Part shown: positions 2,854-57,249 of the stretch, in pieces
How positions within the stretch are numbered: position 1 is the stretch's first letter
Layout: every line of letters starts with the position of its first letter
Source: an uncultured Muribaculaceae bacterium
GTDB lineage: Bacteria; Bacillota_I; Bacilli_A; RF39; UBA660
DNA: 64,000 bases
Direction: 5' to 3'
Assembly (NCBI GenBank): GCA_964371025.1
Contig: CAYJKH010000001.1
Coordinates: 2,077-66,076 of the forward strand
Notes under the pieces: generated by a model
Database searches by the model: none
Seen by the model: only the letters and a program-made list of their open reading frames with translations
Told to the model about the DNA's origin: nothing
Made by a program: the position numbers and the translations under genes

Positions 2854-2940
2854 ACACTTTTTTCTAAAATAAATGTAAAACTATTGATAGAAAAAAAAAT
2901 ATATGTTATTCTTAATAAGAATAAAGGATAGGTGAAGAGG

Positions 2941-3525
2941 ATGAATATAAGAAAAATGGCTATAGTAGCAGTATTACTTACAGTGTTTACTTTGGGTATA
3001 TCATATGCAAGTTTAAGTGTAATCTTAAACATTAATGGTACAGCTCAAGTAAGAGCAGCAAATTGGGATGTTCATTTTGAAAATTTAAGTGCTCCATTAA
3101 CAGAAGGCTTAGTACTAGTTAATGTTGAACCAACCTTAATTAGCAATTCAACTTCATTTTCAGACTTAAATGTAACATTTAATAGGACTAATTCAAGCAT
3201 TACTTATAATGTTGATTTAGTAAATGATGGAGATATTGATGCTCAAGTAAATAATGTTACTAGTACTACACCTTTATGTAATACAACATCAGTTGTTGCA
3301 GTTCCAAGTAATGCGGAACAAGATAAACAAGATGTTTGTAATGCTATCTCTCACTCTGTAAAGTATACAGCAGATGGGAGTGATGTAGCAATCGGAGATG
3401 ATTTACTTGCCGGTGAATCAAAAGAAGTAGCTATTAAAATCAATTATGCAGGTACTAATTTACCACTTAATGTAATTAGTATAAACAACTTAGAGACAGC
3501 TATAGGTTTTAGTCAAAAACCATAA
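2941..3525 (+). CDS. small exported protein with N-terminal signal anchor, paralog A (possible SipW substrate / TasA-like minor subunit)
   Basis: Lys/Arg N-terminus, hydrophobic segment, then ...SYASLSV...ANWDVHFENL. Shares the WDVHFENL block and overall architecture with the next ORF. Lies directly upstream of a SipW-type peptidase gene. Start placed at ATG 2941 behind AAGGATAGGTGAAGAGG. Confidence 0.55.
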   Translation: MNIRKMAIVAVLLTVFTLGISYASLSVILNINGTAQVRAANWDVHFENLSAPLTEGLVLVNVEPTLISNSTSFSDLNVTFNRTNSSITYNVDLVNDGDIDAQVNNVTSTTPLCNTTSVVAVPSNAEQDKQDVCNAISHSVKYTADGSDVAIGDDLLAGESKEVAIKINYAGTNLPLNVISINNLETAIGFSQKP

Positions 3526-3555
3526 AAATAAATAAAAAAGAGAGGAATTATAATT

Positions 3556-4146
3556 ATGAAAACAGAAAGAAATTTAAAAATATTAGTAATAGCAGCTATT
3601 ACTATAGCAATTGGAGGATTATCAATTGGATTTGCTGCATTTAGTAGAACACTAACAATTACAGGAGCAGAGGCTACAGTTAATAGTTCAAGTTGGGATG
3701 TACACTTTGAAAATTTAGTACCATCAACTACAGGAACAGCTACTACTACTGGAGGGTCTATCACACCAACTAATTCTACTAGTATTACAGGAATTGATAT
3801 GACACTTACATCTCCTGGAGATTCAGTAACTTATACTTTTGATGTAGTAAATGGTGGAGATTTTGATGCAATTGCTACTACTCTTAATATTGATACACCA
3901 ACATGTGTAGGGTCAGGAGTAAACGCAACAGTTGATGCAACAAATGTATGTAATAATTTAGAGTATACGTTAACTTATGCTGACGGATCAGATATTTTAA
4001 CTACACCTAGTTTAACAACAGCAGAAGGTACAAAAAGTATGAAATTAACATTAACTTATTCTAATGCTATAACAGCTGATCAATTACCAGCTTCAGCAGT
4101 TACAGTTTCAGATTTAAATGCATCAATTTTATATTCTCAAAACTAA
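3556..4146 (+). CDS. small exported protein, paralog B, with AAFS motif after the signal h-region (SipW-cognate-like)
   Basis: MKTERNLKILVIAAITIAIGGLSIGFAAFSRTLTITG: h-region followed by AAFS, reminiscent of the TasA/CalY AAF(N/S)D SipW-cognate signal; SSWDVHFENL block shared with paralog A; RBS GAGAGGA. Confidence 0.55.
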   Translation: MKTERNLKILVIAAITIAIGGLSIGFAAFSRTLTITGAEATVNSSSWDVHFENLVPSTTGTATTTGGSITPTNSTSITGIDMTLTSPGDSVTYTFDVVNGGDFDAIATTLNIDTPTCVGSGVNATVDATNVCNNLEYTLTYADGSDILTTPSLTTAEGTKSMKLTLTYSNAITADQLPASAVTVSDLNASILYSQN

Positions 4147-4240
4147 TATAAAATAAAATTAAGTAGGTGATAGTATTAAAAAGAGCTATATAAAAATTTT
4201 TCTACTATTTAGTACATTACTAGGATTAATATTAGCTAAT

Positions 4241-5305
4241 ATGTTTCTTTTTAAAAATGAAAACATATATATAATAGCTTCTGTAATAGCTCTTTTTTTA
4301 CTTTTAACAAAAGTATTAATTGGGATTGAAAGAAATAGAAGTAGATTAAAAAGTGAAGCAGTAATGAATGTATTTATATACGTAATGCTTTATCATATTA
4401 TATTATATATTTTAGGTATTTTTATAGGATTTACTAAATCACCTTATAGTTTTTCTATTATAAATTTAATTAGAAATATTACTCCAGTTTTATTAATAAT
4501 TGGATTAACAGAAGTATTTAGATATGCAAATGTAATTAAGAGTGAAAAAAGTAATAAATTATTATTATTTGTAACTATTGTTTTAATAATGTTAGATATT
4601 ACAGTTAAAACAAGTATGTATAATTTAGATGTAAGTACTAATTTATTAGAAATAGCATCTTTAGTAATATTACCAGCTATTGCAAATAATATTTTTTTAG
4701 GATATTTGGCGCTTTATTTTGGATGGGCTCCAGCTATATTATATAGAGTATTAATGGAAATACCGGAATATATAATTCCTATTTTACCAAATACTAATGA
4801 ATATTTAGATGCAATAGTAACCTTTTTATTTCCACTATTATTATTACTGCTATTTTATAGACTATTAAATAGAGATAAAAAAGATAAAAGTCCACTTAAG
4901 AAAAACTATTTTGGAATAGTAGTTACTAGTGTTTTAGTTATTATTACAGTATTTACAGTTGGTTTAACTAGTGGGTTATTTAAATATTATATGATAAGTA
5001 TAGGTTCAGGCTCGATGGAACCAAATATTTATGTGGGGGATTCAATAATTGTAAAAAAAGAAGATAATTTAAAAAATATTGAAATAGATGATATATTAGT
5101 TTTTAATCATAATAATTCTACAGTTGTTCATAGAGTAACTAGAATTATGGAAAAGAATAGTAGTTATGAATTTATAACAAAAGGAGACAATAACGAAGAA
5201 GAAGATAACTGGGTTGTTTCTGAAAAAGATGTTATAGGGACTGCAGAATTAAAAATAAGATACATTGGATATCCTACCATATGGTTAAATGAAAAGATTA
5301 ATTAG
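4241..5305 (+). CDS. sipW: signal peptidase I, SipW/archaeal-eukaryotic type (S26B), fused to a ~230-aa N-terminal polytopic membrane domain
   Basis: C-terminal ~120 aa carry all SipW boxes: GSGSMEP (catalytic Ser), VGDSIIV, VVHRVTRI (catalytic His), KGDNNEEED. N-terminal two-thirds is very hydrophobic with multiple predicted TM helices. Confidence 0.8.
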   Translation: MFLFKNENIYIIASVIALFLLLTKVLIGIERNRSRLKSEAVMNVFIYVMLYHIILYILGIFIGFTKSPYSFSIINLIRNITPVLLIIGLTEVFRYANVIKSEKSNKLLLFVTIVLIMLDITVKTSMYNLDVSTNLLEIASLVILPAIANNIFLGYLALYFGWAPAILYRVLMEIPEYIIPILPNTNEYLDAIVTFLFPLLLLLLFYRLLNRDKKDKSPLKKNYFGIVVTSVLVIITVFTVGLTSGLFKYYMISIGSGSMEPNIYVGDSIIVKKEDNLKNIEIDDILVFNHNNSTVVHRVTRIMEKNSSYEFITKGDNNEEEDNWVVSEKDVIGTAELKIRYIGYPTIWLNEKIN

Positions 5306-5319
5306 AAAGGGTTTATAAT

Positions 5320-6444
5320 ATGGCAAAAAAGATAACGTATAAAAGTAATGATAAAACATTTCATGTGCATTTGAGTTCAAAAAGAATAAGGAAATCAATT
5401 AAATTTGGATTTTTTCTTGTTGCGTCTATAATTTTTGTTGTATTATTTGCATTTTTCATTCTTAAATTAATTAGCACAAGTAATTCAGTATCAGTAGTTA
5501 CTTTTAATGAAAAAGGAACGGAAACATATAGAGTTTACTTAAAAGAAAATGATGACTATAAATCTGATTATCTAGGAGAAGATATGGAATATATATCATC
5601 TCTAATTGATTATGTTCAGTTTGATTATAATTATCAGTTGCACTCAAAAAATGAATTAACAATGGATTATAATTATAAAATTACAGCGGATTTAATTATT
5701 GCCAATAAAGAAGCTAATGGTAAGTACTTATATAAAGATACTTATGAATTAGAAAAAGGTAGTAAAAAAATAACTGATAAACAACTAATGATTTCAGATA
5801 GTGTTGAAATAGATTATGATAAATTTAATAAAATTTCTGAAGATATAAAAAAAGAACATGGTTTATATGCAGATAGTTATTTAGAAGTTAAATTTGAAAT
5901 GATTAATGACTCTACATCAAATGACGTGGATAATTCATTAAAAACAACTAATTCGTTGCTTGCAACTATCCCTTTAAATGAAATTACAATAGCAATTAGT
6001 ACTGCATCTAATACTTTTGATGAATCAAGAACAATTTCAAGAAAGAACTTAGAAGAGTTAATAAATTTGTATATGATTTTAGCAGGAGCATCATTCTTAT
6101 TAGCAGTAGTAAATGCATCTTTAGCAACTTATGTTTATCAAAAATATTATTCTAAAAAAGATATTTACTTAGCAACAGTAAAAAAATATTTAAGAGAATA
6201 TGATAGATTAATTGTTTCAAGTAAACAACCAGCTATTAATGAAAAACATTTTGAAAATAAAATAAGAGTAATGTCTATAGAGGAGTTAATTGATGCCCAT
6301 GATTCATCAGGAGCACCAATTATATACTATGAAGTAGAACCTAATGAAAAAAGTTACTTTGTTATTATAGATAATACAACATTATATAAATTAACAATTT
6401 CTAGAACATGGTTAGAAAATAATAAAAAAGACCCTATCGTTTAG
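5320..6444 (+). CDS. hypothetical membrane-anchored protein (two predicted TM segments), co-oriented with sipW
   Basis: N-terminal signal-anchor FGFFLVASIIFVVLFAFFIL and a second hydrophobic segment near residue 250; no recognisable domain. Confidence 0.45.
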   Translation: MAKKITYKSNDKTFHVHLSSKRIRKSIKFGFFLVASIIFVVLFAFFILKLISTSNSVSVVTFNEKGTETYRVYLKENDDYKSDYLGEDMEYISSLIDYVQFDYNYQLHSKNELTMDYNYKITADLIIANKEANGKYLYKDTYELEKGSKKITDKQLMISDSVEIDYDKFNKISEDIKKEHGLYADSYLEVKFEMINDSTSNDVDNSLKTTNSLLATIPLNEITIAISTASNTFDESRTISRKNLEELINLYMILAGASFLLAVVNASLATYVYQKYYSKKDIYLATVKKYLREYDRLIVSSKQPAINEKHFENKIRVMSIEELIDAHDSSGAPIIYYEVEPNEKSYFVIIDNTTLYKLTISRTWLENNKKDPIV

Positions 6445-8152: not shown

Positions 8153-8226
8153 AATAGTGAATAATATTTGCTATTTTTTTAGTTTTATGTTATTATATAG
8201 ACCAAGTTTATTGCATGGAGGAAATT

Positions 8227-9477
8227 ATGAAAAAAATGTTTAAAATATTATTAATTATCGTTGTTTTTACAACAACTTTTATTGGAGTTATTCCAAGTGT
8301 TAGTGCTAAAGCACCAGCATCAGTTCAAGCAGGGGATGCAGAAAGATTAACACCACATATTGGAGGAGTTTCTTTTTCATATAAAACTTTATCTAATGGA
8401 GAATATGCTTATTGTTTAGAAGTAAAAAAAGGATTAACGCAAAATATAAAAGCAAATTTAGTAGGGGAATTAGATGCTGGATATGCATATATAGTAGCAA
8501 ATGGTTATCCAAATAAAAAAATAACTGGTAACAGAAACTACGATTACTCTATTACTCAAATAGCATTATGGCTTTATATGGACGAAACTAGTGGAACAGA
8601 TAATTTAGCATCTGGTTTTAGAAACAATGCAAGTGATCCTTATAATTTAATGTCACATGTTATCAAATTAACAGATGCAGCAAAAGCAGCAAAAGCAAAA
8701 GGGTATGCTAAACCTAGTATCAGTCTTTCAACACCTACATCTAGTATGAGCATTAGTGAAGATGGTAAATATTTTATTTCTAATCCTATAACACTAGGAG
8801 GAACATCTGTTTCATCGCCTAAAGTATCAATTGTAAGTAGCCCAGAGGGGACTATTATTACAGATGAAGAAGGAACTGAAAAAAAAGAATTTAAAATAGG
8901 GGATAAGTTTCTTTTAAAAACACCAGTAGAAAGTGTTACAGGAGAAGACGTTACCATTAATATTAAAACAAGTGGAACAGGTACAGTATATAAGGCTTAT
9001 GAATATAGCCCGGTAAATAATAATATGCAAAATATTGTACCACAATTAATTCCTGTAAGTACTGCAGTAGCAGATGAGGCTAGTTTTGACTTTTCAACAA
9101 CAACTGTTGTTATAAATAAAACGGATGCCTCAACTAAAAATTATTTAGCTGGAGCTGAATTAGTTATCAAAAAAGACGGGGTTGAAATAGATAGAATAAC
9201 TACAACAGGGGAAAAAATAGAAATTAAAAATTTAGGATATGGTAATTATACTATTGAAGAAGTTAAAGCACCTAATGGATATGAATTAACTACTAAAATA
9301 TATGAGTTTACTTTATCAGAGGAAAATCCTACGGCAGAAGTTACGATTGAAAACTTTCCAACTATAGAAGTACCAAATACTAGCAGTAGTTCAACATTAC
9401 TTCTATCATTAATAGGGTTTTTAATAATTTCATTCTCAGCAGGAATTATTTATAGACATGCAAAAGCAAAAAACTAA
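8227..9477 (+). CDS. cell-wall-anchored adhesin with thioester domain (TED) and CnaB-like domain; non-canonical sorting signal VPNTS
   Basis: Signal peptide. Cys in YAYCLEVKKG paired with the Gln motif SITQIALWLYMDE (TQxA(I/L)W thioester hallmark). C-terminal TIEEVKAPNGYEL (CnaB-like). C-terminus VPNTS + hydrophobic stretch + RHAKAKN. Start at ATG 8227 behind GGAGG. Confidence 0.7.
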   Translation: MKKMFKILLIIVVFTTTFIGVIPSVSAKAPASVQAGDAERLTPHIGGVSFSYKTLSNGEYAYCLEVKKGLTQNIKANLVGELDAGYAYIVANGYPNKKITGNRNYDYSITQIALWLYMDETSGTDNLASGFRNNASDPYNLMSHVIKLTDAAKAAKAKGYAKPSISLSTPTSSMSISEDGKYFISNPITLGGTSVSSPKVSIVSSPEGTIITDEEGTEKKEFKIGDKFLLKTPVESVTGEDVTINIKTSGTGTVYKAYEYSPVNNNMQNIVPQLIPVSTAVADEASFDFSTTTVVINKTDASTKNYLAGAELVIKKDGVEIDRITTTGEKIEIKNLGYGNYTIEEVKAPNGYELTTKIYEFTLSEENPTAEVTIENFPTIEVPNTSSSSTLLLSLIGFLIISFSAGIIYRHAKAKN

Positions 9478-10117
9478 TAAAAGAAAAGAATTCTCCCCAA
9501 ACACTATAGCAATATTTGGTTCAATATTAGCTATTTTAGGAGGATTTTTTCTTTCATATAATTATTTAGAAGAAAAAAAAATATATGCTCATGATCAAAT
9601 GGGGAATTTATTATACAAAGAGGAAGAACCAAAAGAAACTGTTGTAGAAGAAAAAGAAGAGGAAGTAGAACCTGTTCAAGAAGAAGTAAAAGTAGAAACT
9701 ATTGTTAACAAAAATGAATATTTAGGGTATTTAGAGATACCAAAAATTAATTTATTAAAAGGTTTTTATGATAAAACTTCTCCACTAAATGATGTGGAAA
9801 AAAATATTATGGTAATGCCAGAATCGTCATATCCGGATGTTGACCGAGGAAACTTAATTATTTCAGGTCACTCTGGAACAGGGTGGAAAGCATTTTTTGA
9901 CAACTTAGAAAAGCTTAATAAAGGTGATGAGTTAATTGTTAAATATAATAACAAAAAGTATACATACCAACTTACTAATATCTATGAAGTAGAAAAAGAT
10001 GGAACTGTTGCAATATATCGTAATTATAATAAAACAACTTTAACTTTAATCACGTGTACAAATAATATAGACACTTCACAAAGTATTTATATAGCAGAGT
10101 TAATATCTGTAGAATAA
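9458..10117 (+). CDS. sortase (TLxTC catalytic motif)
   Basis: N-terminal TM, YLGYLEIPKINL, active-site His in LIISGHSG, catalytic Cys in TLTLITCTNN; immediately downstream of the TED adhesin. Confidence 0.8.
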   Translation: MQKQKTNKRKEFSPNTIAIFGSILAILGGFFLSYNYLEEKKIYAHDQMGNLLYKEEEPKETVVEEKEEEVEPVQEEVKVETIVNKNEYLGYLEIPKINLLKGFYDKTSPLNDVEKNIMVMPESSYPDVDRGNLIISGHSGTGWKAFFDNLEKLNKGDELIVKYNNKKYTYQLTNIYEVEKDGTVAIYRNYNKTTLTLITCTNNIDTSQSIYIAELISVE

Positions 10118-10141
10118 AATATTTAAAAGGGGGTGAAGGTG

Positions 10142-11074
10142 ATGTCTAATATAAGTTTTTTAGATAAAATAAGAATAATTTTAGATCAAACTTCATCTTC
10201 AATTCTTTTTATTATTATCTTTATTTTAATGTTATTTTTCTGTTATATTATAGGAACTATGAATGAAGAAAAATTCAAAAATAATAAAAAGAAAATATTA
10301 ATTCCATTTTTACTATTACCAATTGGAATTATAATATTTTTCTTTGAACATATTACAAAATTATTTGATTCTATGATGAATAATTTATTTGTAATGATAT
10401 ACTTTCCAAATATTAGCTTATATATTAGTTTTATATTAATAACTAATATTATTGTAATAATATCTTTACTTAATAGTAAAATTTCAAAAGTTCTAAAGAT
10501 GGTTAATATCGGAGTATTCTTATTTTTAAATTTTATATTAATATTAATCCTAAACATAATAAAAACTAATGAATTAGATCCATTTAGTCAAACATCGCTA
10601 TATAGTAGTAATGATATAGTAGGATTAGTGGAAATATCTAGTGTCTTGTTTTTTATCTGGATTTTATTCTTAATAATTTATAAGGTTATTATTCAATATT
10701 TTGATTATAATAAATCTCCTATAAAAGAAGTAGAAGTAGTAGAAAAAATTGTATATGAAACTAAAAAAGAAATTCAAGTAGTAGAAAAAGAAGTATATAA
10801 AGAAGTTAATTTAGAAATGTTTACTCTTGCTGACTATAAAAAAATGCTTGAAATATTAAAAAAAGATAATCAAGTAATAAAACCATTAATTACAAAAACT
10901 TCTATAGAAGAAATAGTAGAAGAAAAAGAATACGAAATAAAAGAAGAAAAAGAATACGAAACAGAACTTGATCGTTTATTAGATTTTTCAAATAATACAG
11001 TATGTGACCCAATTGAGGTAACTACAAATTTAAAATATCTGGAATTACAAGAATTATATAAAAGTGTAAATTAA
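10142..11074 (+). CDS. hypothetical polytopic membrane protein with Lys/Glu-rich coiled-coil C-terminus
   Basis: multiple hydrophobic helices then KEVEVVEKIVYETKKEIQVVEKEVYKEV and tandem EEKEYE(I/T) repeats; ATG 10142 behind AAGGGGGTGAAGG. Confidence 0.45.
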   Translation: MSNISFLDKIRIILDQTSSSILFIIIFILMLFFCYIIGTMNEEKFKNNKKKILIPFLLLPIGIIIFFFEHITKLFDSMMNNLFVMIYFPNISLYISFILITNIIVIISLLNSKISKVLKMVNIGVFLFLNFILILILNIIKTNELDPFSQTSLYSSNDIVGLVEISSVLFFIWILFLIIYKVIIQYFDYNKSPIKEVEVVEKIVYETKKEIQVVEKEVYKEVNLEMFTLADYKKMLEILKKDNQVIKPLITKTSIEEIVEEKEYEIKEEKEYETELDRLLDFSNNTVCDPIEVTTNLKYLELQELYKSVN

Positions 11075-18977: not shown

Positions 18978-21029
18978 ATGGGTGTATATCAAAAAGCATA
19001 TTTCGCATTTTTAGGATTAATACTAATGACACTAGTATTTTTCAACGTGTCTTATGCTATATATGACTCAACATATGAAGAACTAGGAGTAGTTCAAATG
19101 AGTTTATCTACTTTGGAACCCTTATTAGAAAGTGACTCATTTAATGAGAATAAAGAAATAACAGTTCCTGCTAATTCTACTAAAGAAGTTGTAATCACTT
19201 TAACTAATATATATGAAGATGAGATAAAAGCTAATTTATATTATCAGGCTAATCATGAAGATACAGCAGCATATTATGATAAAACACCTACCCCTCAAGA
19301 GGACGGAAAGTTAATACCAAAATATGGTGATGTTGGTCATGTTGAAACATATACAGTGTATTTAGAAAATAATGATATTTATAGTAGGACTTTCGCTTTT
19401 GGTAGTTCTGGAGGATTAAAGTATAATGATTTAATTTTTCCATCAAAAGAAGATGGATATAGAGTAGTAGAAATGTATCCTAATATAATGATGGAAGGAG
19501 GAGACTTTTTTGATACATTTGAAGGAGTTTATACTTCGGGGGTTGAATTTGAAGATGAAATCAATCCTAATTACAAAGATTATTCAAAATACTATGACTT
19601 ATCAGCTGGTAGAAATGGGCGAGTAATTGGCTATATCGATGAAAATAATATTTTAAAAATTCAAGCAAATGGTAAAATACAAGCTAATAAAAATTCTGCT
19701 TCCCTTTTCTTGAGGTTTCAAGCACCATACGTAAATTTTAATAATAATTTTGATACAAGTAAAGTAACAAGTATGTCTCATATGTTTGAGAGTAGTAAAT
19801 TTACTAATTTAGATTTAAGTTCATTTGATACAAGTAATGTTATAAGTATGTCCCATATGTTTGATGATTCGACAGCACAAAATATTAATATATCATCTTT
19901 TGATACAAGTAAAGTAACAGATATGTCTTATTTATTTTATTATAGTAACGTAACAGAAGTTGATATTAGTAACTTTAATACGAGTCAAGTAATAGATATG
20001 GAAGGTATGTTTAGAAACGCAGAAATTACGACATTAAATATTACTAATTTTGATACAAGTAAAGTAACAAGTATGTCGGGTATGTTTTATCAGACTAAAA
20101 TTACAAATATTGATTTATTAAATTTTAATACAAGCAATGTTATTGAAATGACAGCAATGTTTCGTAATAGTCAATTCCAAGAATTAGATTTAAGTTCATT
20201 TGATACTAGTAATGTAAAATATATGGGAGATATGTTTAGAGGATGTATTGCTACTAGTATGGATATATCTACATTTAACACAAATAATGTTATAACAATG
20301 TCATATATGTTTGGTGGAAATAAATTATCAACATTAGATATTACTCACTTTGATACAAGTCAAGTATTGGATATGTCGGGTATGTTTAGCGGGACACAAG
20401 ATTTAAATTTAGATGTTTCAACTATTGATACAAGTCAAGTGACAAATATGGAGTATATGTTTTCTACAAGTAAAGCTACAATACTAAATTTATCTAATTT
20501 CATCACTACTAATGTGACTAATATGGAAGGGATGTTTTCTAATAGTGATGTTTTAGATTTGAATCTATCTTCCTTTGATACAAGTAAAGTGACTAATATG
20601 GAAAAGATGTTTAATCAAACGAAAATGACGATATTAAACTTATCAAACTTTAATACGAGTAGTGTAACTAATATGAGAGAAATGTTTCTATATGCCAAAA
20701 TAATTAATATGGATTTAACTTCATTTAATACAAGTAAAGTAACAGATATGCATCGCATGTTTTATGGTTGCACTGCTTCCTCAATTAATGTAACCTCATT
20801 TAATACAAGTAAAGTAACTAATATGGGTGATATGTTTGTTTCTGTTAATGTTCCAGTTTTAGACTTGAGTTCATTTGATACTAGTAGTGCATCAGGTACA
20901 TATAGTATGTATAGAATGTTCCAAAATAGTTCAACTACATTAGTTTATGCTAGAACAGAGACTGATAAAGCAAGATTTGATGCAACATATTTAAAACCTG
21001 CTACTTTAAATGTAGAAGTAAAAAATTAA
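18978..21029 (+). CDS. secreted surface protein composed of ~20 tandem DUF285/BspA-type ~26-aa repeats
   Basis: N-terminal signal peptide. Repeated units (I/L)xxFDTS(K/N)V(T/I)xMxxMF... (e.g. FDTSKVTSMSHMF, FNTSQVIDMEGMF) from about residue 255 to 650. Matches the Mycoplasma/Clostridia DUF285 leucine-rich-like repeat pattern. Confidence 0.7.
   Translation: MGVYQKAYFAFLGLILMTLVFFNVSYAIYDSTYEELGVVQMSLSTLEPLLESDSFNENKEITVPANSTKEVVITLTNIYEDEIKANLYYQANHEDTAAYYDKTPTPQEDGKLIPKYGDVGHVETYTVYLENNDIYSRTFAFGSSGGLKYNDLIFPSKEDGYRVVEMYPNIMMEGGDFFDTFEGVYTSGVEFEDEINPNYKDYSKYYDLSAGRNGRVIGYIDENNILKIQANGKIQANKNSASLFLRFQAPYVNFNNNFDTSKVTSMSHMFESSKFTNLDLSSFDTSNVISMSHMFDDSTAQNINISSFDTSKVTDMSYLFYYSNVTEVDISNFNTSQVIDMEGMFRNAEITTLNITNFDTSKVTSMSGMFYQTKITNIDLLNFNTSNVIEMTAMFRNSQFQELDLSSFDTSNVKYMGDMFRGCIATSMDISTFNTNNVITMSYMFGGNKLSTLDITHFDTSQVLDMSGMFSGTQDLNLDVSTIDTSQVTNMEYMFSTSKATILNLSNFITTNVTNMEGMFSNSDVLDLNLSSFDTSKVTNMEKMFNQTKMTILNLSNFNTSSVTNMREMFLYAKIINMDLTSFNTSKVTDMHRMFYGCTASSINVTSFNTSKVTNMGDMFVSVNVPVLDLSSFDTSSASGTYSMYRMFQNSSTTLVYARTETDKARFDATYLKPATLNVEVKN
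19745..20925 (+). repeat. tandem ~78-nt coding repeats (DUF285 units) inside CDS 18978-21029
   Basis: recurring ttt(g/a)atac(a/g)agtaa(a/t)gt(a/t)ac(a/t)...atgt...atgttt units visible at DNA level. Confidence 0.7.
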
Positions 21030-30433: not shown

Positions 30434-32425
30434 TTAACCGCCAATACCATCAGTAGGGTCAGTTGGTTCTTCAGTACCAGTTGAGCCTTCTTCAGTACCA
30501 GTTGAGCCTTCGTCTTCAGTAGGTCCACCTGTCTGATTTTCATCTTCAGTAGGATCACTTGTAGATTCTTCCTCAACCTCTGGTGTTGGAGTAGGTGCAG
30601 GTTCTGGTTGTGCTTCACCTGACATTGTAATAGTAATAGATCCTCCAATTAAATCAGTTCTTTTACCTGCTGGATAGTTTTGTTTAATAACAGTACCACC
30701 ACTTCCAATAACTGTAACGCTTAAGCCATTTCGACTAGCAATACTTCTTGCAGTTGCTTCGCTATATCCAATTAGATTAGGGACTAAATTATAACTACCT
30801 GATGTATTATATGGTCCTTCTCCAATAACTGTTTTTTCATAAGGTTCATTAATTGAGAATGAGAATTCAGTAATTGGTTCTGCTTCTTCTAGTTCTAAAT
30901 TTACTTTCATTGCTTCTGTAATATCGTCACGACTTTCTTCAATTGGAACATAGTTCCATAAGTTTAATCCGCTTCTTTCATCATAAATAGTTTGGCCACT
31001 TCCTGATAAGTAAAGTTGTTGCATATTTATTAATTCAGAATCTTCATTAGCTAAACTTTTAGTTAATATATCTTTTGCAATATCATAAAATGATAATAAT
31101 TGATCAGTAGTTAAGTTAGTATCTAAGCTATTAGATATAGTATCTAATATATCCATAAATACTGATACATCTGTAATAGTTTTAACTTTTTCAGTTAATG
31201 CCATTACAATTTCTTGTTGATGCTGCGCTCTTCCAAAATCACCATTTGGTAATTGCTTTCTATTTCTTGCAAATACTAATGCTTCTTCACCTGCTAAAGT
31301 TTGAGTACCTTGACTAATACATACTTTACCATTTCTTGAAGAGTTATCAGTACATAATTCATAAGGGACGTCAACTTCAACACCTCCAACGGCATCGATA
31401 AGTTTTACAAATCCTTTAAAGTTAATTTTAGCATAATAATCAATTTCTAAATCAAAATATTCTCCTAAACTATTAATCATGCAGTCATTACCATATGCTG
31501 CAGCATGAGTTATTTTATTTTCTGGTTTTCCACTCCAACATGAAATTGGTATATATGAATCCCTCGGAACAGATAACATTGTTGCATTTAATGTTTTAGG
31601 ATTGAATGTCACTAGTATCAACGTATCTCCAAGGGCTGCTGCATTTGGATCTAATACTTCAGTGGTAGAATCAACTCCCATTAATAACATAGTAAATGGT
31701 TCATTAACATCTTTTCCTTTTGAAGCATTATCAATATCTGAAATATCACTTTTATTAAATTTCTTTGTTTCTGTATGAATTACTTTTGTATCAGTAGCAA
31801 TATTTTGATATCCATCTAATTGATTAAAAGTATCAATATAAGTAGCATTTAAAAATGCTAAATCAATTTCTTCTGCATATAAGTCTGCTACCATTGAATT
31901 ATAATCATCATAAGAAATAACTTCATTAGTGTCATGTAAATCAAATTCTTTTATAATATCTTGCGGAATTAGATATCCATCAGGAGAATCCTCATCACTT
32001 AAAATAGCAATTTTACTATCTTCTACATCTTTAGCAGTTTCAAAGTTACTAGAACTTAAAGCTACTAAGTTAGATGTATATTCAACTTGCTCTTTATTAA
32101 AACTACTTAGTTGACTATAAAAATAAAATATAATCCCTCCAAGTACTCCTGTAATTAAAGAGTATATAATTAAGAAAAATATAAATCCAATTCTTTTTTT
32201 ATTTTTATTTTTATCCTTCTTATTTTTCCATATGACTTTATTTTTTATTAAAATAATTAAATCTATAAAGATAATTAGTCCAATCGCAATCATTCTTAGT
32301 AATGTTTCAATACTACTTAGTTGTAATAATTGATATATTAAAAAACCACTAGCAAGTATTGCTATAATAGTTAGTATTAAAATAAATTTTTGTAGTTTAG
32401 TTTTTCTCTTTTTTTCAAACTCCAT
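30434..32425 (-). CDS. LytR-CpsA-Psr (LCP) family cell-wall polymer transferase with C-terminal PASTA-like domain and acidic low-complexity tail
   Basis: N-terminal TM helices. LCP core: FTMLLMGVDS..., LSVPRDSYIPIS..., AAAYGNDCMINSL.., INFKGFVKLIDAVGGVEVDVP. C-terminal NLIGYSEATARSIASRNGLSVTVIG (PASTA-like), then PTPTPEVEEESTSDPTEDE... with a tandem STGTEEG repeat. Confidence 0.8.
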   Translation of the reverse strand: MEFEKKRKTKLQKFILILTIIAILASGFLIYQLLQLSSIETLLRMIAIGLIIFIDLIILIKNKVIWKNKKDKNKNKKRIGFIFFLIIYSLITGVLGGIIFYFYSQLSSFNKEQVEYTSNLVALSSSNFETAKDVEDSKIAILSDEDSPDGYLIPQDIIKEFDLHDTNEVISYDDYNSMVADLYAEEIDLAFLNATYIDTFNQLDGYQNIATDTKVIHTETKKFNKSDISDIDNASKGKDVNEPFTMLLMGVDSTTEVLDPNAAALGDTLILVTFNPKTLNATMLSVPRDSYIPISCWSGKPENKITHAAAYGNDCMINSLGEYFDLEIDYYAKINFKGFVKLIDAVGGVEVDVPYELCTDNSSRNGKVCISQGTQTLAGEEALVFARNRKQLPNGDFGRAQHQQEIVMALTEKVKTITDVSVFMDILDTISNSLDTNLTTDQLLSFYDIAKDILTKSLANEDSELINMQQLYLSGSGQTIYDERSGLNLWNYVPIEESRDDITEAMKVNLELEEAEPITEFSFSINEPYEKTVIGEGPYNTSGSYNLVPNLIGYSEATARSIASRNGLSVTVIGSGGTVIKQNYPAGKRTDLIGGSITITMSGEAQPEPAPTPTPEVEEESTSDPTEDENQTGGPTEDEGSTGTEEGSTGTEEPTDPTDGIGG

Positions 32426-48244: not shown

Positions 48245-49411
48245 ATGAAAATGGAAAAAATATATATTGAAAACAATAAAAACGGAGATAAAAAACATAA
48301 AAATTATATTAATTTGTCAACTATTTCATCATTTATATTAGCATTTACAGCAATTGCATTAGTGGGAACTTCTTATTTTCTGGGAAATTCATATGCTTTA
48401 CCAGAAGTAAAAGAAAGTCTCCCGGATAATTTTACAACTTCAGTTCCATCTGCTAAAGTTAATGGTAACTCACCAAGTGGAGCATTTCCAATTATGGTTT
48501 ATAAAACTACTGGAGGAGAACTTGTATATTGCTTAGAAAGAGATATTAACTATACTGGTAATACTAACTATTCCAAAGATGGTTTAATTGAGGATTATGG
48601 TTTATTATATGTAATGGCGAATTCATATCCCCATAAAACTTTTAAAGATAAAGCAGGAGTAGCTTACCCTGAAGAAATCCAAGTATGGATAACACAAGCT
48701 ATGATATGGGAATATTTACATGATATAGGAGCGGCTAACAATACATCTGATACTGCTATGACTCTAGATTTATTAGAGAGTATAAGAGAATTAGATATAG
48801 ATGATGGGAATATTGCAAATGCAATTGATTTAGATGACTCTGTTTATAATTTATATATGAAAGATATTATAAATGTTGCCAAAACTTTAAAAACTCCACA
48901 AGGTAATTTATCTATAACAGCACAAAATGATAAAATGACTTTAACAAATGAAGGTAAATATTATCAAAGTTCATTAATTACAGTAACAGGAAGTCCTTCT
49001 GATAATTTCATTGGACATAAAATATCATTTACTGGTCCAAAAGATACGGTATTAATATCAGAAAATGGAGATATTATTACCAATCTTGATTTTGTTACAC
49101 CAAATACAAAATTTTATGTAAGAGTTCCAGTTGAGTCGGTTGATGAAAATAATAAAGTTATTAAATTAAGTACAACAGGATCTTTTAGATTATATGAAGG
49201 TTATTACTACAAATCACCAGGAGCTCAGACAATATCTTCAGTACATACTGTAGATAAACAATTAAGTCAAGGATTAGAAATTCCGATTAACTTAGAAATT
49301 AAAGCTCCAGATACGAAAGTAGATACTTCAATTATTATATACATTGTAGCAGGAGTAATCTTTGTTGCCGGAGTAATAATTATTGTAAGAAGTTCAAAGC
49401 CTAGAAAATAA
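48245..49411 (+). CDS. cell-wall-anchored thioester-domain (TED) pilin/adhesin paralog 1; sorting signal APDTK
   Basis: N-terminal signal/TM. Cys in GELVYCLERDIN paired with QVWITQAMIWEYL (TQxxIW thioester Gln motif). C-terminal KAPDTKVDTS + hydrophobic segment + RSSKPRK. Confidence 0.7.
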   Translation: MKMEKIYIENNKNGDKKHKNYINLSTISSFILAFTAIALVGTSYFLGNSYALPEVKESLPDNFTTSVPSAKVNGNSPSGAFPIMVYKTTGGELVYCLERDINYTGNTNYSKDGLIEDYGLLYVMANSYPHKTFKDKAGVAYPEEIQVWITQAMIWEYLHDIGAANNTSDTAMTLDLLESIRELDIDDGNIANAIDLDDSVYNLYMKDIINVAKTLKTPQGNLSITAQNDKMTLTNEGKYYQSSLITVTGSPSDNFIGHKISFTGPKDTVLISENGDIITNLDFVTPNTKFYVRVPVESVDENNKVIKLSTTGSFRLYEGYYYKSPGAQTISSVHTVDKQLSQGLEIPINLEIKAPDTKVDTSIIIYIVAGVIFVAGVIIIVRSSKPRK

Positions 49412-49530
49412 AAAGAGTAAAATCTTTTTATTTTTTTGTAAACTTTTTGTCAACGAAGTCAATTTACTTGTAAAACGCTTGATAATGTGTAAAGAAGAGT
49501 GTAATATAACATTAAAGGAAGGTGTATTAT

Positions 49531-50595
49531 ATGAAAAATAATATTAAAAAAATTACAAAACTTACTATGATAATAGCAGTATTTGCTACTATGATCTTTA
49601 GTAGTATTGCCCCTGTAAAGGCAACATCATTTTTAGATAAGTTTACAACAGCAACAATTGGTGCTAAAACAACAGGATCAGGCGGAACTACTCCAATTGC
49701 AGTATTTGAATACACTACTACTAGTGGTCAAATAGTTTATTGTTTGGAAAGGGATATTAACTTTGTAGCAGGAAGAGAATTTAATAAAAGTGAATTAATT
49801 AATGATTATGGATTAATGCATGTTATGTCAAATGTTTATCCACATAAAAAATTCACTGATTCAACTGGGGCTGAATTACCAAAAGGGCACCAAGTTTGGA
49901 TATCTCAAGTAATGATTTGGGAATATTTATACCAAACAAAAGCAGCTAATAATACTTCAACAACTTCTAATTCATTAGAATCTATTAAAGATATTAATAA
50001 ATTATTAACAGGAGATACAATAACGGACGAAGTAACTTATTCTAAATCTTTATATGAATTATATATGAAAGAAATTTTAGAAAAAGCTTATACTATAAAA
50101 GAACCAAATCCAAGTGTAAATATGGAAACTACAAGTAAATATATGACTTTATCGAGTGATGGTAAATATTATATGAGTAGTGCCATTAATATTACAACTT
50201 CAGATAGTGGAACTTACGGGCTAAAAGTAGAAGGTCCAACTGGAACACAAATAGTAGATAAAGATGGGAAAGTTGTAACAACAGGAATGCCGTCACAAGT
50301 ATTTATTAAAATACCAGTTGATTCAGTTACAGAAACTAATAAAAAAATAACACTAACTGCAACAGGAGATGCTAAAGCTTATGAAGGATATTATTATAAA
50401 GCGACTGGAGCACAAACTATTGCCTTTGTTGATACAAAAGATATCGGAGTAGATATTCCAATTACTTTAGAAATAAAAGCGCCAGATACAGCTATAGATG
50501 TTTCGAATTCAACTTATGTAATTGGAGCATTAATAATAGCAATAGGAGCATTTGCAGTAATTAATAGTAATAGAAAAAAAACAAGTCGTAGATAA
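49531..50595 (+). CDS. TED pilin/adhesin paralog 2 (SQxxIW variant); sorting signal APDTA
   Basis: GQIVYCLERDINF + QVWISQVMIWEYL; C-terminal KAPDTAIDVS + hydrophobic + NSNRKKTSRR; ATG 49531 behind AAAGGAAGGTG. Confidence 0.65.
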   Translation: MKNNIKKITKLTMIIAVFATMIFSSIAPVKATSFLDKFTTATIGAKTTGSGGTTPIAVFEYTTTSGQIVYCLERDINFVAGREFNKSELINDYGLMHVMSNVYPHKKFTDSTGAELPKGHQVWISQVMIWEYLYQTKAANNTSTTSNSLESIKDINKLLTGDTITDEVTYSKSLYELYMKEILEKAYTIKEPNPSVNMETTSKYMTLSSDGKYYMSSAINITTSDSGTYGLKVEGPTGTQIVDKDGKVVTTGMPSQVFIKIPVDSVTETNKKITLTATGDAKAYEGYYYKATGAQTIAFVDTKDIGVDIPITLEIKAPDTAIDVSNSTYVIGALIIAIGAFAVINSNRKKTSRR

Positions 50596-50600
50596 ATTTA

Positions 50601-50626
50601 AAAGAACTTAACAGTTCTTTTTTTCT
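50601..50626 (+). terminator. rho-independent terminator (partial read-through to paralog 3 possible)
   Basis: AAAGAACT-taac-AGTTCTTT followed by T-run. Confidence 0.6.
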
Positions 50627-50678
50627 TGATAAAATGTTTTTTTTAAGTTATTATATATATAGTAAAGAAGGTAGAATT

Positions 50679-51842
50679 ATGGGTAAAATAAATACTAAAA
50701 ATTTAATACTTATTGTAAGTAGTTTATTATTAATAATAGGAATAGGAATATATTATTTTAATCAACCATCATCTGCTCAAAAAGACTCTATTAGTCTAAA
50801 AGAATATAGTGAATATTTTGCAGTTACTATATTTAATAATGATTCAAAATATTATTCGGATCGTAATAATAGAATTAAAATAACACCTTATATAGATGAA
50901 AACAATAATTTTGTTTATACTCCATACATTTATGATGATTCATCTAGTGCTACGCTTAATACATTTTTACAAGAACAATTGATTACTGATCCAGGATATA
51001 AATATCTATTAGAAAATATATTTCCTAAAGTGGAGTGGGATAATAAATATTACTCTCCAGAACTAAAAGAAATTGATTTAAATGATTATGAAGATCCTAT
51101 AACTAAGGAACCAGATTATGTGATGTCACAATTAATTATATGGGCATATTACTACACTAAATACCCTGAAGAAGATAAAAATGAATATCTTAATAAAATA
51201 AAAGAAACTAAGTATATATTTTTTCAAGATGATGAGGTAAATGTAGATATTTATGGCGATTTATATGATGAAGTTATTAAGGATTTGGTTGATGAAGCCC
51301 TTCGTCAAAATGAACAGCCAGTTATAGACCCAGTTGTTAATGTTGTTAATACTGACAAAAATATAGCAGTAACTACAGATGAAGAATATTATCAAACAGG
51401 TGCTATAAATATAAGTAAGAGTAATATAGAAAATTATATTGATCATGAATTTATAATTAATGGACCAAAAGGAACTTATTTAATAGATGGTGATGGTAAT
51501 AAAATAGAAGGAAAAACTACAGCTACCGAAGTTTATGCAAGAATTCCAATTGATAATGTTACCGATGAAAATAAAGTAGTAGTATTAAATATGATATCTT
51601 ATTATGAGACAGATGAATTAGTTACATATGTTGATTCTAATGGAAATAGTTTAATATCTGTAAAACCAGTTATAAAAACGTTAAATAGTACTATTAATGT
51701 TCCTTTATTATTAAAAATAAATGTGCCAGATACTAATATATTTGTATCTAATAGTATTTATTTTATTGGAGCAATATTTTTATTATTAGGAGCAGGAGTG
51801 ATTTATTTATATGAGAGAAGAAAAAAGAAAATTAAAGAATAG
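50679..51842 (+). CDS. pilin-like paralog 3, TED-related but lacking the thioester Cys; sorting signal VPDTN
   Basis: Signal anchor MGKINTKNLILIVSSLLLIIGIGIYYF. SQLIIWAYYY block present, but no Cys in the preceding ~100 aa. C-terminal VPDTNIFVS + hydrophobic + YERRKKKIKE. Start at ATG 50679 behind AAGAAGG. Confidence 0.5.
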   Translation: MGKINTKNLILIVSSLLLIIGIGIYYFNQPSSAQKDSISLKEYSEYFAVTIFNNDSKYYSDRNNRIKITPYIDENNNFVYTPYIYDDSSSATLNTFLQEQLITDPGYKYLLENIFPKVEWDNKYYSPELKEIDLNDYEDPITKEPDYVMSQLIIWAYYYTKYPEEDKNEYLNKIKETKYIFFQDDEVNVDIYGDLYDEVIKDLVDEALRQNEQPVIDPVVNVVNTDKNIAVTTDEEYYQTGAINISKSNIENYIDHEFIINGPKGTYLIDGDGNKIEGKTTATEVYARIPIDNVTDENKVVVLNMISYYETDELVTYVDSNGNSLISVKPVIKTLNSTINVPLLLKINVPDTNIFVSNSIYFIGAIFLLLGAGVIYLYERRKKKIKE

Positions 51843-52458
51843 TCACTTAATAATCATTGGAGTTATTTTAATGTTAATAGGAGTTACAATATTATCTTCT
51901 AATTACATTTTAAAATTAAAAAATGAAGTTTTTACTGATGCCCTTATTATGATTTATAACGATAAAGGTGAAGTTGTAAATGAAATATTAAATGATGTTC
52001 CGGAAGTGGATGTCGTTAATGATATACCTAATGCTCCTAAAGCAAAAAAAATAGATTATTCTAAGTACTTGGGAGTTTTAGAAATACCTAAAATTAGTTT
52101 GAAGAGTGGCTTTTATGATTTAGATTCTAAATATAATAACATTGAAAAAAATGTTACACTTTCACTAGGGTCAAGAATGCCAGATGTTGAAAATGGTAAC
52201 TTAATATTAATGGCACATTCTGGTAATGCTTACATTGCTTATTTTGCCTATTTATATAAATTAAAAGTAAATGATAAAATGTATGTTACTTATAATAATA
52301 TAAAATATGAATATGAATTAGTAGATATTTACGATGTTGAAAAAACAGGAACGGTTGAAATAAAGAGAAATTATAGTAAAAAAACACTAACTTTAATTAC
52401 ATGTACAAAAGATAGTGATACTAAACAAACTGTATATATAGCAGAAATGGTAGAATAG
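51811..52458 (+). CDS. sortase (TLxTC catalytic motif), paralog of 9458-10117
   Basis: N-terminal TM, YLGVLEIPKISL, LILMAHSGNA (His), TLTLITCTKDS (Cys); ends ...YIAEMVE like the first sortase (...YIAELISVE). Confidence 0.8.
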   Translation: MREEKRKLKNSHLIIIGVILMLIGVTILSSNYILKLKNEVFTDALIMIYNDKGEVVNEILNDVPEVDVVNDIPNAPKAKKIDYSKYLGVLEIPKISLKSGFYDLDSKYNNIEKNVTLSLGSRMPDVENGNLILMAHSGNAYIAYFAYLYKLKVNDKMYVTYNNIKYEYELVDIYDVEKTGTVEIKRNYSKKTLTLITCTKDSDTKQTVYIAEMVE

Positions 52459-52466
52459 GAGGAAAT

Positions 52467-53042
52467 ATGACATTTAATTTAATTGATCAACTTCAAATAA
52501 TATTTAATTATATATTTTCATCTTTTTTAGGATTAGAATTATTTATATTTGTTATTTTATTTACAGCAGTTTTAATTTTAAATATATTTTATGATTATAA
52601 AATAATTAAAGTTTGTTCATTATCTCTTATGATAGCTTTTATAATTGGAATATTTATATTTAATAGAGATTATGTGATAGATAGCATTTCTTTATTTATT
52701 AAATTTATAATAGAATATATATATTTTCCTTCTATATTAATGTATTTTTTAATCATAGTAGCAGTAACTATATATATGATTATTAATATGTATTCAACTA
52801 AAATATCAAAAAGAAAGAAAATTTTTAATTATTCTGTATTTTCAATTCTATACTTTTGCTTTTTTTCATTCTTAGCTATTTCTATAATAGGGGAATTTGA
52901 TTTATCAAATGAAAGCATTTTATACCAAGATGAGGTTATATTAGCCTTAATTCAAGTAAGTAATTTATTTTTATTTTCTTTTATTATATTTGATCTTATA
53001 TATCATTTATATAAGTTTCTACAAAAAAAAGATAAAGAATAG
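52467..53042 (+). CDS. hypothetical polytopic membrane protein
   Basis: 5 predicted TM helices; RBS AGGAGG; no known motif. Confidence 0.4.
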   Translation: MTFNLIDQLQIIFNYIFSSFLGLELFIFVILFTAVLILNIFYDYKIIKVCSLSLMIAFIIGIFIFNRDYVIDSISLFIKFIIEYIYFPSILMYFLIIVAVTIYMIINMYSTKISKRKKIFNYSVFSILYFCFFSFLAISIIGEFDLSNESILYQDEVILALIQVSNLFLFSFIIFDLIYHLYKFLQKKDKE

Positions 53043-53828: not shown

Positions 53829-54527
53829 ATGAATGAAAAAATTAACGTAAAAGCAACTAAAGTAGGAACAAGAAAAAAAATTGTTAAAATTGTAAAGATA
53901 ATATTATTAATAATAGTGTTTATATTGTTAGTATTGTATTTGGTAATGGGAGTCATCTATAATAGTGGCAATTTCAGTATAACACTTGATAAGAACTTGT
54001 ATTTTGATAAAGGAATAATCATTTATGATGATCCTGATTACAAAGTATATCGTTCTGAATTGTTTGCAGAAACTATTCCAACATTTGATAATATATCAGG
54101 TAAGTGGATTCCAGAAGATGTTTGGGCTGGTAATGGTTCGAATAACGGAAAGAATTATATGGCTTATTCATTTTATATGGAAAATGAAGGTAAAGATCCT
54201 GCGAATATTTGGGCGGAAGTAATTATTGATGATGTTATAAAAAATCTAGATGAGGCAGTTAGAGTCCGTGTGTATAAGGATGGGGAGTACAATACTTATG
54301 CTAAATTGGGCGCTAATGGGGAAGCGGAACCTGAAACAGAATCTTTTTATAATGACAAGTATATTATGCTTGAAGAAGTAAAAGATTTTAAACCAGGAGA
54401 TATAATCAAATATACGGTAGTTGTTTGGTTAGAAGGTGCTGACCCAGAATGTACTGATAACATTTTAGGTGGAGAGATTAAATTTCATATGAACTTTAAC
54501 TCAGAATTTGTCGAAGAAGAAAAATAA
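53829..54527 (+). CDS. hypothetical membrane-anchored protein, first gene of exported-paralog cluster
   Basis: Basic N-terminus (KATKVGTRKKIVKIVK) + TM (IILLIIVFILLVLYLVMGVIY), then a ~190-aa extracytoplasmic domain with an acidic tail; RBS AAGGA. Confidence 0.45.
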   Translation: MNEKINVKATKVGTRKKIVKIVKIILLIIVFILLVLYLVMGVIYNSGNFSITLDKNLYFDKGIIIYDDPDYKVYRSELFAETIPTFDNISGKWIPEDVWAGNGSNNGKNYMAYSFYMENEGKDPANIWAEVIIDDVIKNLDEAVRVRVYKDGEYNTYAKLGANGEAEPETESFYNDKYIMLEEVKDFKPGDIIKYTVVVWLEGADPECTDNILGGEIKFHMNFNSEFVEEEK

Positions 54528-55789: not shown

Positions 55790-55883
55790 TATAAATTATA
55801 GATTAAAGTTAATATTATATATAAATATACTATAAGTTACTTATTATAAGTAGCTTATAGATATAAATTTGAAAGGGAATAAT

Positions 55884-57170: not shown

Positions 57171-57199
57171 TCAATAATAAAGAAAACTATATATTGGAT

Positions 57200-57228
57200 A
57201 AAGAGTAATCAAATTACTCTTTATTTAT
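57200..57228 (+). terminator. possible rho-independent terminator/attenuator
   Basis: AAGAGTAAT-caa-ATTACTCTT followed by TTATTTAT (weak U-tract). Confidence 0.45.
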
Positions 57229-57249
57229 ATATATATAATAGGTGGTATT

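Follow-up and report, generated by a model that had tools for sequence, protein, structure and literature searches.

A putative sortase with glutamine in the column of the catalytic arginine, paired with a VPNTS-bearing thioester-domain adhesin and a membrane protein in an uncultured bacterium of the Bacilli

The subject of this analysis is a three-gene module on the forward strand of a 64,000-nt stretch of DNA, hereafter the window, from an uncultured bacterium (GenBank assembly GCA_964371025.1, contig CAYJKH010000001.1, positions 2,077 to 66,076; labeled Muribaculaceae and placed by GTDB in Bacilli_A, RF39, UBA660). The module consists of a small thioester-domain (TED) adhesin with the sorting pentapeptide VPNTS near its C-terminus, a sortase, and a polytopic membrane protein. 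His-Cys-Arg is the textbook description of the sortase active site, and enzymes of this kind are in routine use for joining proteins; the sortase found here, and nearly all of the clade to which it belongs, has a Gln in the column of the catalytic Arg. This replacement is the module's most unusual feature and the one likeliest to surprise a specialist. Judging from sequence, domain content, and gene order, we consider it probable (about 0.72) that the three genes form a surface-display module in which the VPNTS adhesin is anchored by a sortase working through His-Cys-Gln. The adhesin adds one more protein to a familiar family, and the sortase, its signal, and the partner gene make up a new variant of something already known.

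The position of Gln208 was established through alignments to several enzymes that retain the Arg. HMMER alignments placed it opposite the catalytic Arg of the class C enzyme 8t28 and opposite Arg196 of Bacillus anthracis SrtA, and a MAFFT alignment placed it in the Arg column of a class D sortase from a Clostridium perfringens plasmid (ITLITCTNRAKQRLILKGELI) and opposite the residue that we take to be Arg197 of Staphylococcus aureus SrtA (SaSrtA). For clade members with a six-residue loop, the alignment to the C. perfringens enzyme was gap-free and set Q against R, and the profile alignment to 4d70 was shifted by one residue for want of a gap. The segment that follows Cys200, TCTNNIDTSQSIYIAELISVE, contains no Arg or Lys through to the C-terminus, and the window sortase has Gln208 where the His-Cys-Arg triad has its Arg on strand beta8. 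The same Gln was found in all 82 of the sortases from the loci described below and in 120 of 120 close homologues. A profile search recovered 401 representative clusters at E ≤ 1e-30, and of its 146 top-ranking 50%-identity representatives whose sequence covers the Gln/Arg region, 144 have Gln. The two exceptions have Asn (P0137, with an EVPNTA substrate) and Tyr (P0229, with no anchored substrate adjoining).

Two candidates for a feature that might compensate for the missing Arg were considered. Arg188, in the beta6/beta7 loop, is invariant in close homologues, and it was rejected because it is not kept across the wider clade, which has, for example, IFKDPNK, LHNINN, or ISELEQ there. A compensating role for the Asp or Asn at the third position of the sorting signal is weakened by the occurrence of Gln-type enzymes with VPKTG, VPKTA, VPYTY, and VPFT or VPIT signals as well. 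A literature search, incomplete in its coverage, found no report of Gln-type or Arg-less sortases.

The loci of the two exceptions have features of their own. At the P0229 locus (L092 4001..5787, in a spore-former context), the sortase with Tyr at the Gln/Arg position also has HNG for HSG; no anchor-bearing protein is encoded upstream, and the membrane partner is kept downstream. The neighbor of the single Asn-type sortase is an adhesin (L093 1906..4023) that combines a TED and a SpaA domain with two T-Q ester-bond domains, making it a full thioester, isopeptide, and ester (TIE) protein, and its anchor reads EVPNTA.

The sortase gene overlaps the 3' end of the adhesin gene by 20 nt, an arrangement of adhesin and sortase that is repeated across 80 genomes, and its product matched Pfam Sortase PF04203 (MEROPS C60) at 69.7 bits (cut-off 26.6). 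The TLITC active site that the original prediction had read in this neighbor is present, with both Cys200 and His138 in place, and the class-level hidden Markov models (HMMs) did not put the enzyme in LPXTG-specific class A or C, an outcome in favor of the original prediction. Among the NCBIfam models, the generic sortase model TIGR01076 scored 71 bits against a cut-off of 39.35, while every class model fell short of its own cut-off: 82.8 bits against 160 for class C (NF033745), 72.4 against 140 for the class D LPxTATN type (NF058671), 60.1 against 165 for class D (NF033746), 43 against 160 for class E, and 34 against 166 for class F. A second sortase in the window, described below, and nine diverse relatives behaved likewise, the generic model being the only one passed. 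Their class C scores were 61.2 bits for the second window sortase and 54–82 bits for the relatives, and the relatives' class D scores were 29–59 bits (NF033746) and 37–79 bits (NF058671); no class A model appeared among the NCBIfam matches of the two window sortases and the nine relatives. The 3243 sortase homologues that were found all come from uncultured gut Bacilli. We regard the clade as unclassified, with classes C and D as its relatives.

The adhesin gene is listed as an open reading frame (ORF) at 8215..9477. Translation probably begins at 8227, where an ATG has GGAGG just 5' of it, and this start agrees with the 416-amino acid NCBI record P0309. From N- to C-terminus, the protein has a signal peptide, a thioester domain of the class II type, a beta-sandwich, a CnaB/SpaA domain, and the sorting signal. 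The Cys and Gln hallmarks that the original prediction had assigned to an internal thioester lie in YAYCLE (residues 60–65) and TQIALW (residues 110–115) and are retained by nearly all homologues (Table 1); in the alignment of 59 homologues, Trp115 is present in 59/59, and Tyr62-Cys63 and Thr110-Gln111 are near-invariant. Pfam TED (PF08341) scored 32.9 bits (cut-off 22), the NCBIfam model TQXA_dom gave a weak match over residues 93–124, and the CnaB-like domain that had been proposed was recovered as PF17802 at 67.9 bits (cut-off 23.1). Residues Lys298, Glu345, and Asn376 are kept among those homologues that possess the CnaB domain, and this set is consistent with an isopeptide bond.

An AlphaFold2 (AF2) model of the adhesin, built on the 59-homologue alignment, had a mean predicted local distance difference test (pLDDT) score of 90.4 and an N-terminal helix at residues 2–19. 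The segment containing the TQ motif modeled as a TED fold: the top Foldseek matches in the PDB were 6fwv, a TIE protein of B. anthracis (E 2e-24), and 6fwy, in which TIE86 of Enterococcus faecium is represented by its thioester domain (E 9e-15, template modeling score (target) 0.64). The thioester domains of both structures have been assigned to class II (PMC8092201). NCBI labels homologues of the protein "Cys-Gln thioester bond-forming surface protein," and by domain content, motifs, and fold it is a small TIE-type adhesin. A scan for promoters and terminators returned sites no more often than in shuffled sequence; one site at 8168–8196 (TTGCTA-17-TG-TATTAT) is positioned suitably for an adhesin promoter, which alone is not evidence.

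The C-terminus of the adhesin reads TIE-VPNTS-SSSTLLLSLIGFLIISFSAGIIY-RHAKAKN, that is, a pentapeptide, 23 mostly hydrophobic residues, and a basic tail. This is the tripartite layout of an LPXTG-style signal with neither Leu at position 1 nor Gly at position 5, and the LPXTG signal model TIGR01167, whose cut-off is 15.9 bits, scored 16.7 (E 0.009). Val382, Pro383, and Thr385 are near-invariant among the 59 homologues, and no LPXTG occurs in the proteins encoded in the 64-kb window. To place the signal in a wider setting, one genome per species was scanned for relatives of the sortase, which yielded 80 loci, all of them in metagenome-assembled genomes (MAGs) of uncultured gut bacteria labeled "Bacilli," "Mycoplasmatota," or "Erysipelotrichaceae," including Candidatus Faecimonas. 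In almost every one of these loci, a TED protein ends where the sortase gene starts. The 81 anchors beside orthologous sortases (from the 80 other genomes and the window) have Val at position 1 in 76 cases, Ile in 3, and Ala in 2; positions 2 and 4 are Pro and Thr in all 81; position 3 is divided between Asp (41) and Asn (40); and position 5 is Ala in 32, Ser in 18, Asn in 12, Gly in 12 (15%), Lys in 4, and Asp in 3. Compared with the class D-like signal LPNTA, position 3 is Asp or Asn in 81/81, position 5 is most often Ala (32/81), and position 1 is Val, not Leu. The conserved N-x-x-E-V-x upstream is the end of the CnaB domain, which puts the signal about five residues past the last domain, as in pilins.

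A signal of the VP[DN]T type is a family rule across some 80 species, which upholds the claim that this anchor departs from LPXTG and, through the recurrence of VP[DN]T[A/S/N/G] beside this type of sortase, supports a non-standard specificity. Farther out in the clade, the adjoining signals are EVPDTS, EVPKTG, KVPNTG, EVPNTK, EVPKTA, EVPNTA, and DVPYTY, and some adhesin homologues have VPFT or VPIT in place of VP[DN]T. Our literature search found nothing on the clade's VPxT pentapeptides as sortase signals. The sortase had also been called dedicated to the adhesin, and this stands only in part. Related genomes encode, at a distance of a few kb, surface proteins that are not TED proteins and end in IPDTG, IPNTG, or VPNTG; one of them is a discoidin-domain protein. 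With the same type of signal on these neighbors, the sortase type probably handles more substrates than the TED adhesin.

Directly 3' of the sortase lies the third gene, whose product is a polytopic membrane protein. A homologue of it follows the sortase immediately in 80/80 of the genome loci, at loci L085 and L086, and at both window loci, as recovered with a three-copy profile. A Pfam search of this protein returned nothing, and its homologues are unnamed and without Pfam domain; its one NCBIfam match, to a Mycoplasma integrative conjugative element (ICE) pilin-like protein, was sub-threshold (19.4 bits against 40). The family-wide signal rule, the Gln at the Arg column, and this conserved third gene go beyond the original prediction. 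There is a little less than an even chance, in our estimate, that the clade represents a distinct and undescribed sortase class, characterized by His-Cys-Gln, by V-P-x-T signals without a need for Gly, and by an obligatory membrane partner on chromosomes. Such a class would be active by way of a carboxamide hydrogen bond, possibly with a different acceptor or with assistance from the partner, and would serve as the general display system for a widespread, uncultured lineage of gut Bacilli and for its conjugative elements.

The display mechanism that we favor would proceed as follows. The adhesin would be exported by Sec, and an internal thioester between Cys63 and Gln111 would react with an amine on the target, resulting in covalent adhesion, with the CnaB domain serving as a short stalk. 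VPNTS, the hydrophobic segment, and the basic tail would keep the precursor in the membrane, where the co-translated and membrane-anchored sortase would cut after Thr385 (VPNT/S) through Cys200, together with His138. The acyl-enzyme would then be resolved by an acceptor amine, for which lipid II, the precursor of peptidoglycan, is the likeliest source, and the product would be a wall-linked stalk presenting a reactive thioester. The clade would read V-P-x-T, in which x is usually Asp or Asn, and would have no requirement for Gly at P1', and the carboxamide of Gln208 would presumably donate the hydrogen bond that otherwise comes from Arg. Wall-related genes in the window (encoding an LCP-PASTA protein, an LtaS-like sulfatase, a glucosaminidase, and a 4xPASTA protein) make it very likely that the organism possesses a wall of peptidoglycan, so that classical wall anchoring is feasible.

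Among the alternatives, the one that fares best, and which we still regard as unlikely, is the assembly of a pilus or fiber, in which a class C-like polymerase would join TED subunits via a Lys acceptor, especially at the second module of the window. Class C is the top class HMM for the sortase, Ebp SrtC is among its best PDB sequence matches together with further enzymes of class C, and the signal sits right after the last immunoglobulin-like domain, as it does in pilins. VPDTG is, moreover, the known sorting signal of the Streptococcus pneumoniae pilin RrgC (PMC11231552), the second module has three paralogous substrates with one sortase, and the adhesin model also matches many pilins in Foldseek through its CnaB part. 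Against this, the class C score is half of the cut-off (82.8 against 160), the sortase sequence has neither a DP(F/W/Y) lid motif nor a C-terminal membrane anchor (19 residues follow Cys200 to the end), the adhesin has no YPKN-type pilin motif, and all but one of the 80 loci have a single VP[DN]T-anchored TED substrate by the sortase. The adhesin's conserved NGYPNK was rejected as a YPKN motif; it belongs to the TQXA domain and so is no evidence for polymerization.

Slightly less likely again is an inactive sortase homologue, with the adhesin staying in the membrane by its own C-terminal helix and the sortase-like protein and its partner forming a chaperone or retention complex. This would account for the absence of an Arg deemed universal and required, for an obligatory membrane partner that is otherwise without explanation, and for the Tyr member P0229, which has no adjoining anchor-bearing substrate. 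An inactive protein is harder to reconcile with the invariant or near-invariant His, TLxTC Cys, and Gln across more than 140 representatives at 50% identity, with the co-conservation of a V-P-x-T substrate and the enzyme, and with the sole other substitution found beside an anchored substrate being Asn, likewise a carboxamide (P0137, EVPNTA). Several points do weigh against wall anchoring by an active His-Cys-Gln enzyme. Two reviews describe His-Cys-Arg as common to all sortase classes (PMC11231552; PMC8225981), and efficient catalysis by SaSrtA needs Arg197 (Marraffini 2004, cited in PMC11231552), from which it follows that an Arg-less enzyme could be weak or inactive. Given the invariable presence of a membrane partner whose role has no explanation, the enzyme may use another acceptor or another mechanism than that of classical lipid II anchoring. 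The AF2 model of the sortase, built on a 13-sequence alignment, reached a pLDDT of 57.7, too poor for active-site geometry or a fold search, and the census of sortases and LPXTG proteins covers the 64-kb window only. In favor of an active enzyme, work by Frankel, Bentley, and others reportedly found that SaSrtA with citrulline at Arg197 stayed active, which would point to hydrogen bonding and not charge as the property that counts; our literature search found nothing relevant on this.

It is very improbable that the TED adhesin and sortase serve DNA transfer as a mating-pair adhesin module in place of host or substrate adhesion: distant clade sortases do sit inside conjugative-element contexts, conjugation of pLS20 depends on a class II TED adhesin (PMC8092201), and the nearest sortases of cultured organisms, which belong to class D, are carried by C. 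perfringens plasmids, but both window loci lie among housekeeping genes with no conjugation genes nearby, and the membrane partner belongs to the chromosomal form and is absent from the conjugative-element forms. Such a role would concern the biology only and is compatible with the display mechanism favored here.

Table 1. Positions within the window of the features of the two modules and of two wall-related genes (aa, amino acids; entries under Basis summarize the supporting search or observation)
Feature	Position	Strand	Basis
TIE-type adhesin gene, 416 aa	8227..9477	+	ORF list, Pfam, AF2, Foldseek
Sec-type signal peptide MKKMFKILLIIVVFTTTFIGVIPSVSA	8227..8307	+	Read off the sequence; putative cleavage after SVSA
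Putative thioester Cys63 codon, in YAYCLE	8413..8415	+	Cys kept in 57/59 homologues
Putative thioester Gln111 codon, in TQIALW	8557..8559	+	Gln kept in 57/59 homologues
CnaB/SpaA prealbumin-like stalk domain	9103..9354	+	Pfam PF17802; candidate isopeptide residues Lys298, Glu345, Asn376
Sorting pentapeptide VPNTS, aa 382–386	9370..9384	+	5 residues past last CnaB strand
Hydrophobic segment for membrane retention plus basic tail SSSTLLLSLIGFLIISFSAGIIYRHAKAKN, followed by stop codon	9385..9477	+	Sequence; AF2 helix 391–415
Sortase, 219 aa: membrane anchor at N-terminus, then acidic linker and catalytic domain	9458..10117	+	Pfam/NCBIfam
Catalytic His138 codon, invariant HSG	9869..9871	+	Alignments of sortase homologues
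Catalytic Cys200 codon, TLITC	10055..10057	+	Invariant in alignments
Gln208 codon, column of canonical catalytic Arg (SaSrtA R197, BaSrtA R196)	10079..10081	+	Alignments
Polytopic membrane protein, family unassigned	10133..11074	+	NCBI start ATG 10142, 310 aa
LCP (LytR-CpsA-Psr) protein fused to PASTA domain	30434..32425	-	Domain search
4xPASTA protein, 616 aa	36177..38027	-	Domain search at E ≤ 0.001, with no match to a kinase or transpeptidase domain
Second module, TED protein 1: VYCLE, TQAMIW; anchor APDTK at 49304–49318	48245..49411	+	Pfam TED 36.2 bits
Second module, TED protein 2: VYCLE, SQVMIW; anchor APDTA at 50479–50493	49522..50595	+	Pfam TED 32.8 bits
Degenerate TED-like paralogue: SQLIIW, Cys lost; anchor VPDTN at 51723–51737	50634..51842	+	No Pfam match
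Second sortase, 215 aa: TLITC Cys198, Gln206; 41% identical to first	51811..52458	+	Sequence comparison
Second membrane partner, 191 aa	52467..53042	+	28% identical to 10133..11074; hmmsearch E 6e-75

The window has a GC content of about 25%, with nearly all genes on the forward strand, and the whole module recurs in it at 48245..53042 (Table 1). The two TED proteins that open this second module are 41% identical to each other, and the paralogue that follows them is 25–27% identical to both; having lost its Cys, it is a degenerate and presumably non-reactive TED. Both modules are situated among housekeeping genes, with sufS and sufU upstream, as identified from their translations, and pcrA-like and ligA genes downstream. 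The window also encodes a 683-residue protein (18978..21029) with four repeats of DUF285 ("Mycoplasma protein of unknown function"; 297.8 bits), which fits a Mollicutes-like affinity of the lineage.

Further observations were made on the flanks of the modules. Upstream of the first module, at 2932..6444, is a four-gene cluster that looks like a TasA/SipW-type fiber or matrix locus. It encodes two paralogous secreted proteins of about 196 residues that are 32% identical and have SipW-type-like N-termini (..GISYASLS and ..GFAAFS), a SipW-like signal peptidase with an N-terminal polytopic domain of about 220 residues (TIGR02228, 82 bits), and a DUF5305 protein. Just downstream of the second module, at 54542..58329 (also 53829..54527), the local GC fraction is 0.31–0.33, and three tandem unknown proteins belonging to no Pfam or NCBIfam family have a basic hydrophobic N-terminus followed by "TYAWF," which resembles a TasA/SipW-cognate signal. 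At a relative of the conjugative-element type (L091 973..1572), the product of the gene after the sortase begins ..GGTLAYFTTSD. These cases hint at a recurring link between the sortase loci and SipW-type secreted proteins.

Regarding relatives beyond the chromosomal loci, distant Gln-type sortases adjoin TED/SpaA adhesins in contexts that carry ParA/ParB, a relaxase, a coupling protein, a TrbL/VirB6-like protein, and a giant SNF2 helicase. A tblastn search of a plasmid collection with the window sortase gave no match, and the same collection searched with a clade member of the conjugative type gave matches of at most 33% identity, to class C/D sortases. The closest sortases of cultured bacteria are of classes D and C, at no more than 33% identity, and are mainly on C. 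perfringens and Enterococcus plasmids. One of these, on C. perfringens plasmid NZ_CP102305.1 (L089 1..3748, 4782..5378), is a class D sortase with the normal Arg. The SpaA-type adhesin upstream of it ends in KKFEIVKTGSNFDF and then a hydrophobic tail, the anchor motif being without Pro.

A natural His-Cys-Gln clade would bear on the debated role of the sortase Arg, namely whether it acts through charge or hydrogen bonding and in oxyanion or substrate positioning. The clade is sizable (at least 144 clusters at 50% identity seen directly and 401 matching at E ≤ 1e-30) and could yield ligases orthogonal to LPXTG enzymes, as readers of VPDT or VPNT with relaxed demands at P1'. It also appears that abundant uncultured gut Bacilli, as represented by MAGs from humans, ruminants, rabbits, and chickens, display thioester adhesins capable of covalent binding. 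Annotation pipelines say only "sortase" for these enzymes, and scans for LPXTG motifs would miss the clade's substrates.

Among known systems, the adhesin most resembles the TIE proteins BaTIE (6FWV) and TIE86 (6FWY), with which it shares an N-terminal signal peptide, a TED having the Cys of a YC motif and the Gln of TQxA(I/V/L)W, an extra beta-sandwich, a CnaB-type stalk, and a C-terminal sortase signal. It differs from them in being much shorter (416 residues with one CnaB domain), in its identity of only 17–19%, and in an anchor that reads VPNTS instead of LPXTG and lies five residues past the last domain. The TIE conjugation adhesin of pLS20 (p34) likewise has a class II TED and a CnaB stalk, and distant relatives of the module occur in conjugative elements; the pLS20 protein, however, has no sorting signal and is sortase-independent (PMC8092201), whereas both loci of the window lie on the chromosome and have no transfer genes in their vicinity.

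Among the closest parallels to the sortase are the enzymes of class D, as represented by B. anthracis SrtC (LPNTA), C. perfringens SrtD (4D70), and the plasmid forms. Like these, it is small, with an N-terminal anchor and no lid, its signal has Asn at position 3 and a residue other than Gly at position 5 (LPNTA versus VPNTA/S), the sequence around its Cys is near-identical (TLITCTN), and class D enzymes are among its best sequence matches. Unlike these, it scores far under both class D cut-offs (60 against 165 and 72 against 140), its signal has Val and not Leu at position 1, Gln stands for the catalytic Arg, an invariant HSG includes the His, and its clade comes consistently with a TED adhesin, which on chromosomes is joined by a polytopic membrane protein. 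With the class C pilus sortases, such as S. pneumoniae SrtC-3 with RrgC (VPDTG), it has in common the top class HMM, a VPDT core, and substrates ending in CnaB, and it is set apart from them by the lack of a lid, a C-terminal anchor, and a pilin motif, by a position-5 Gly frequency of about 15%, and by the change of Arg to Gln.

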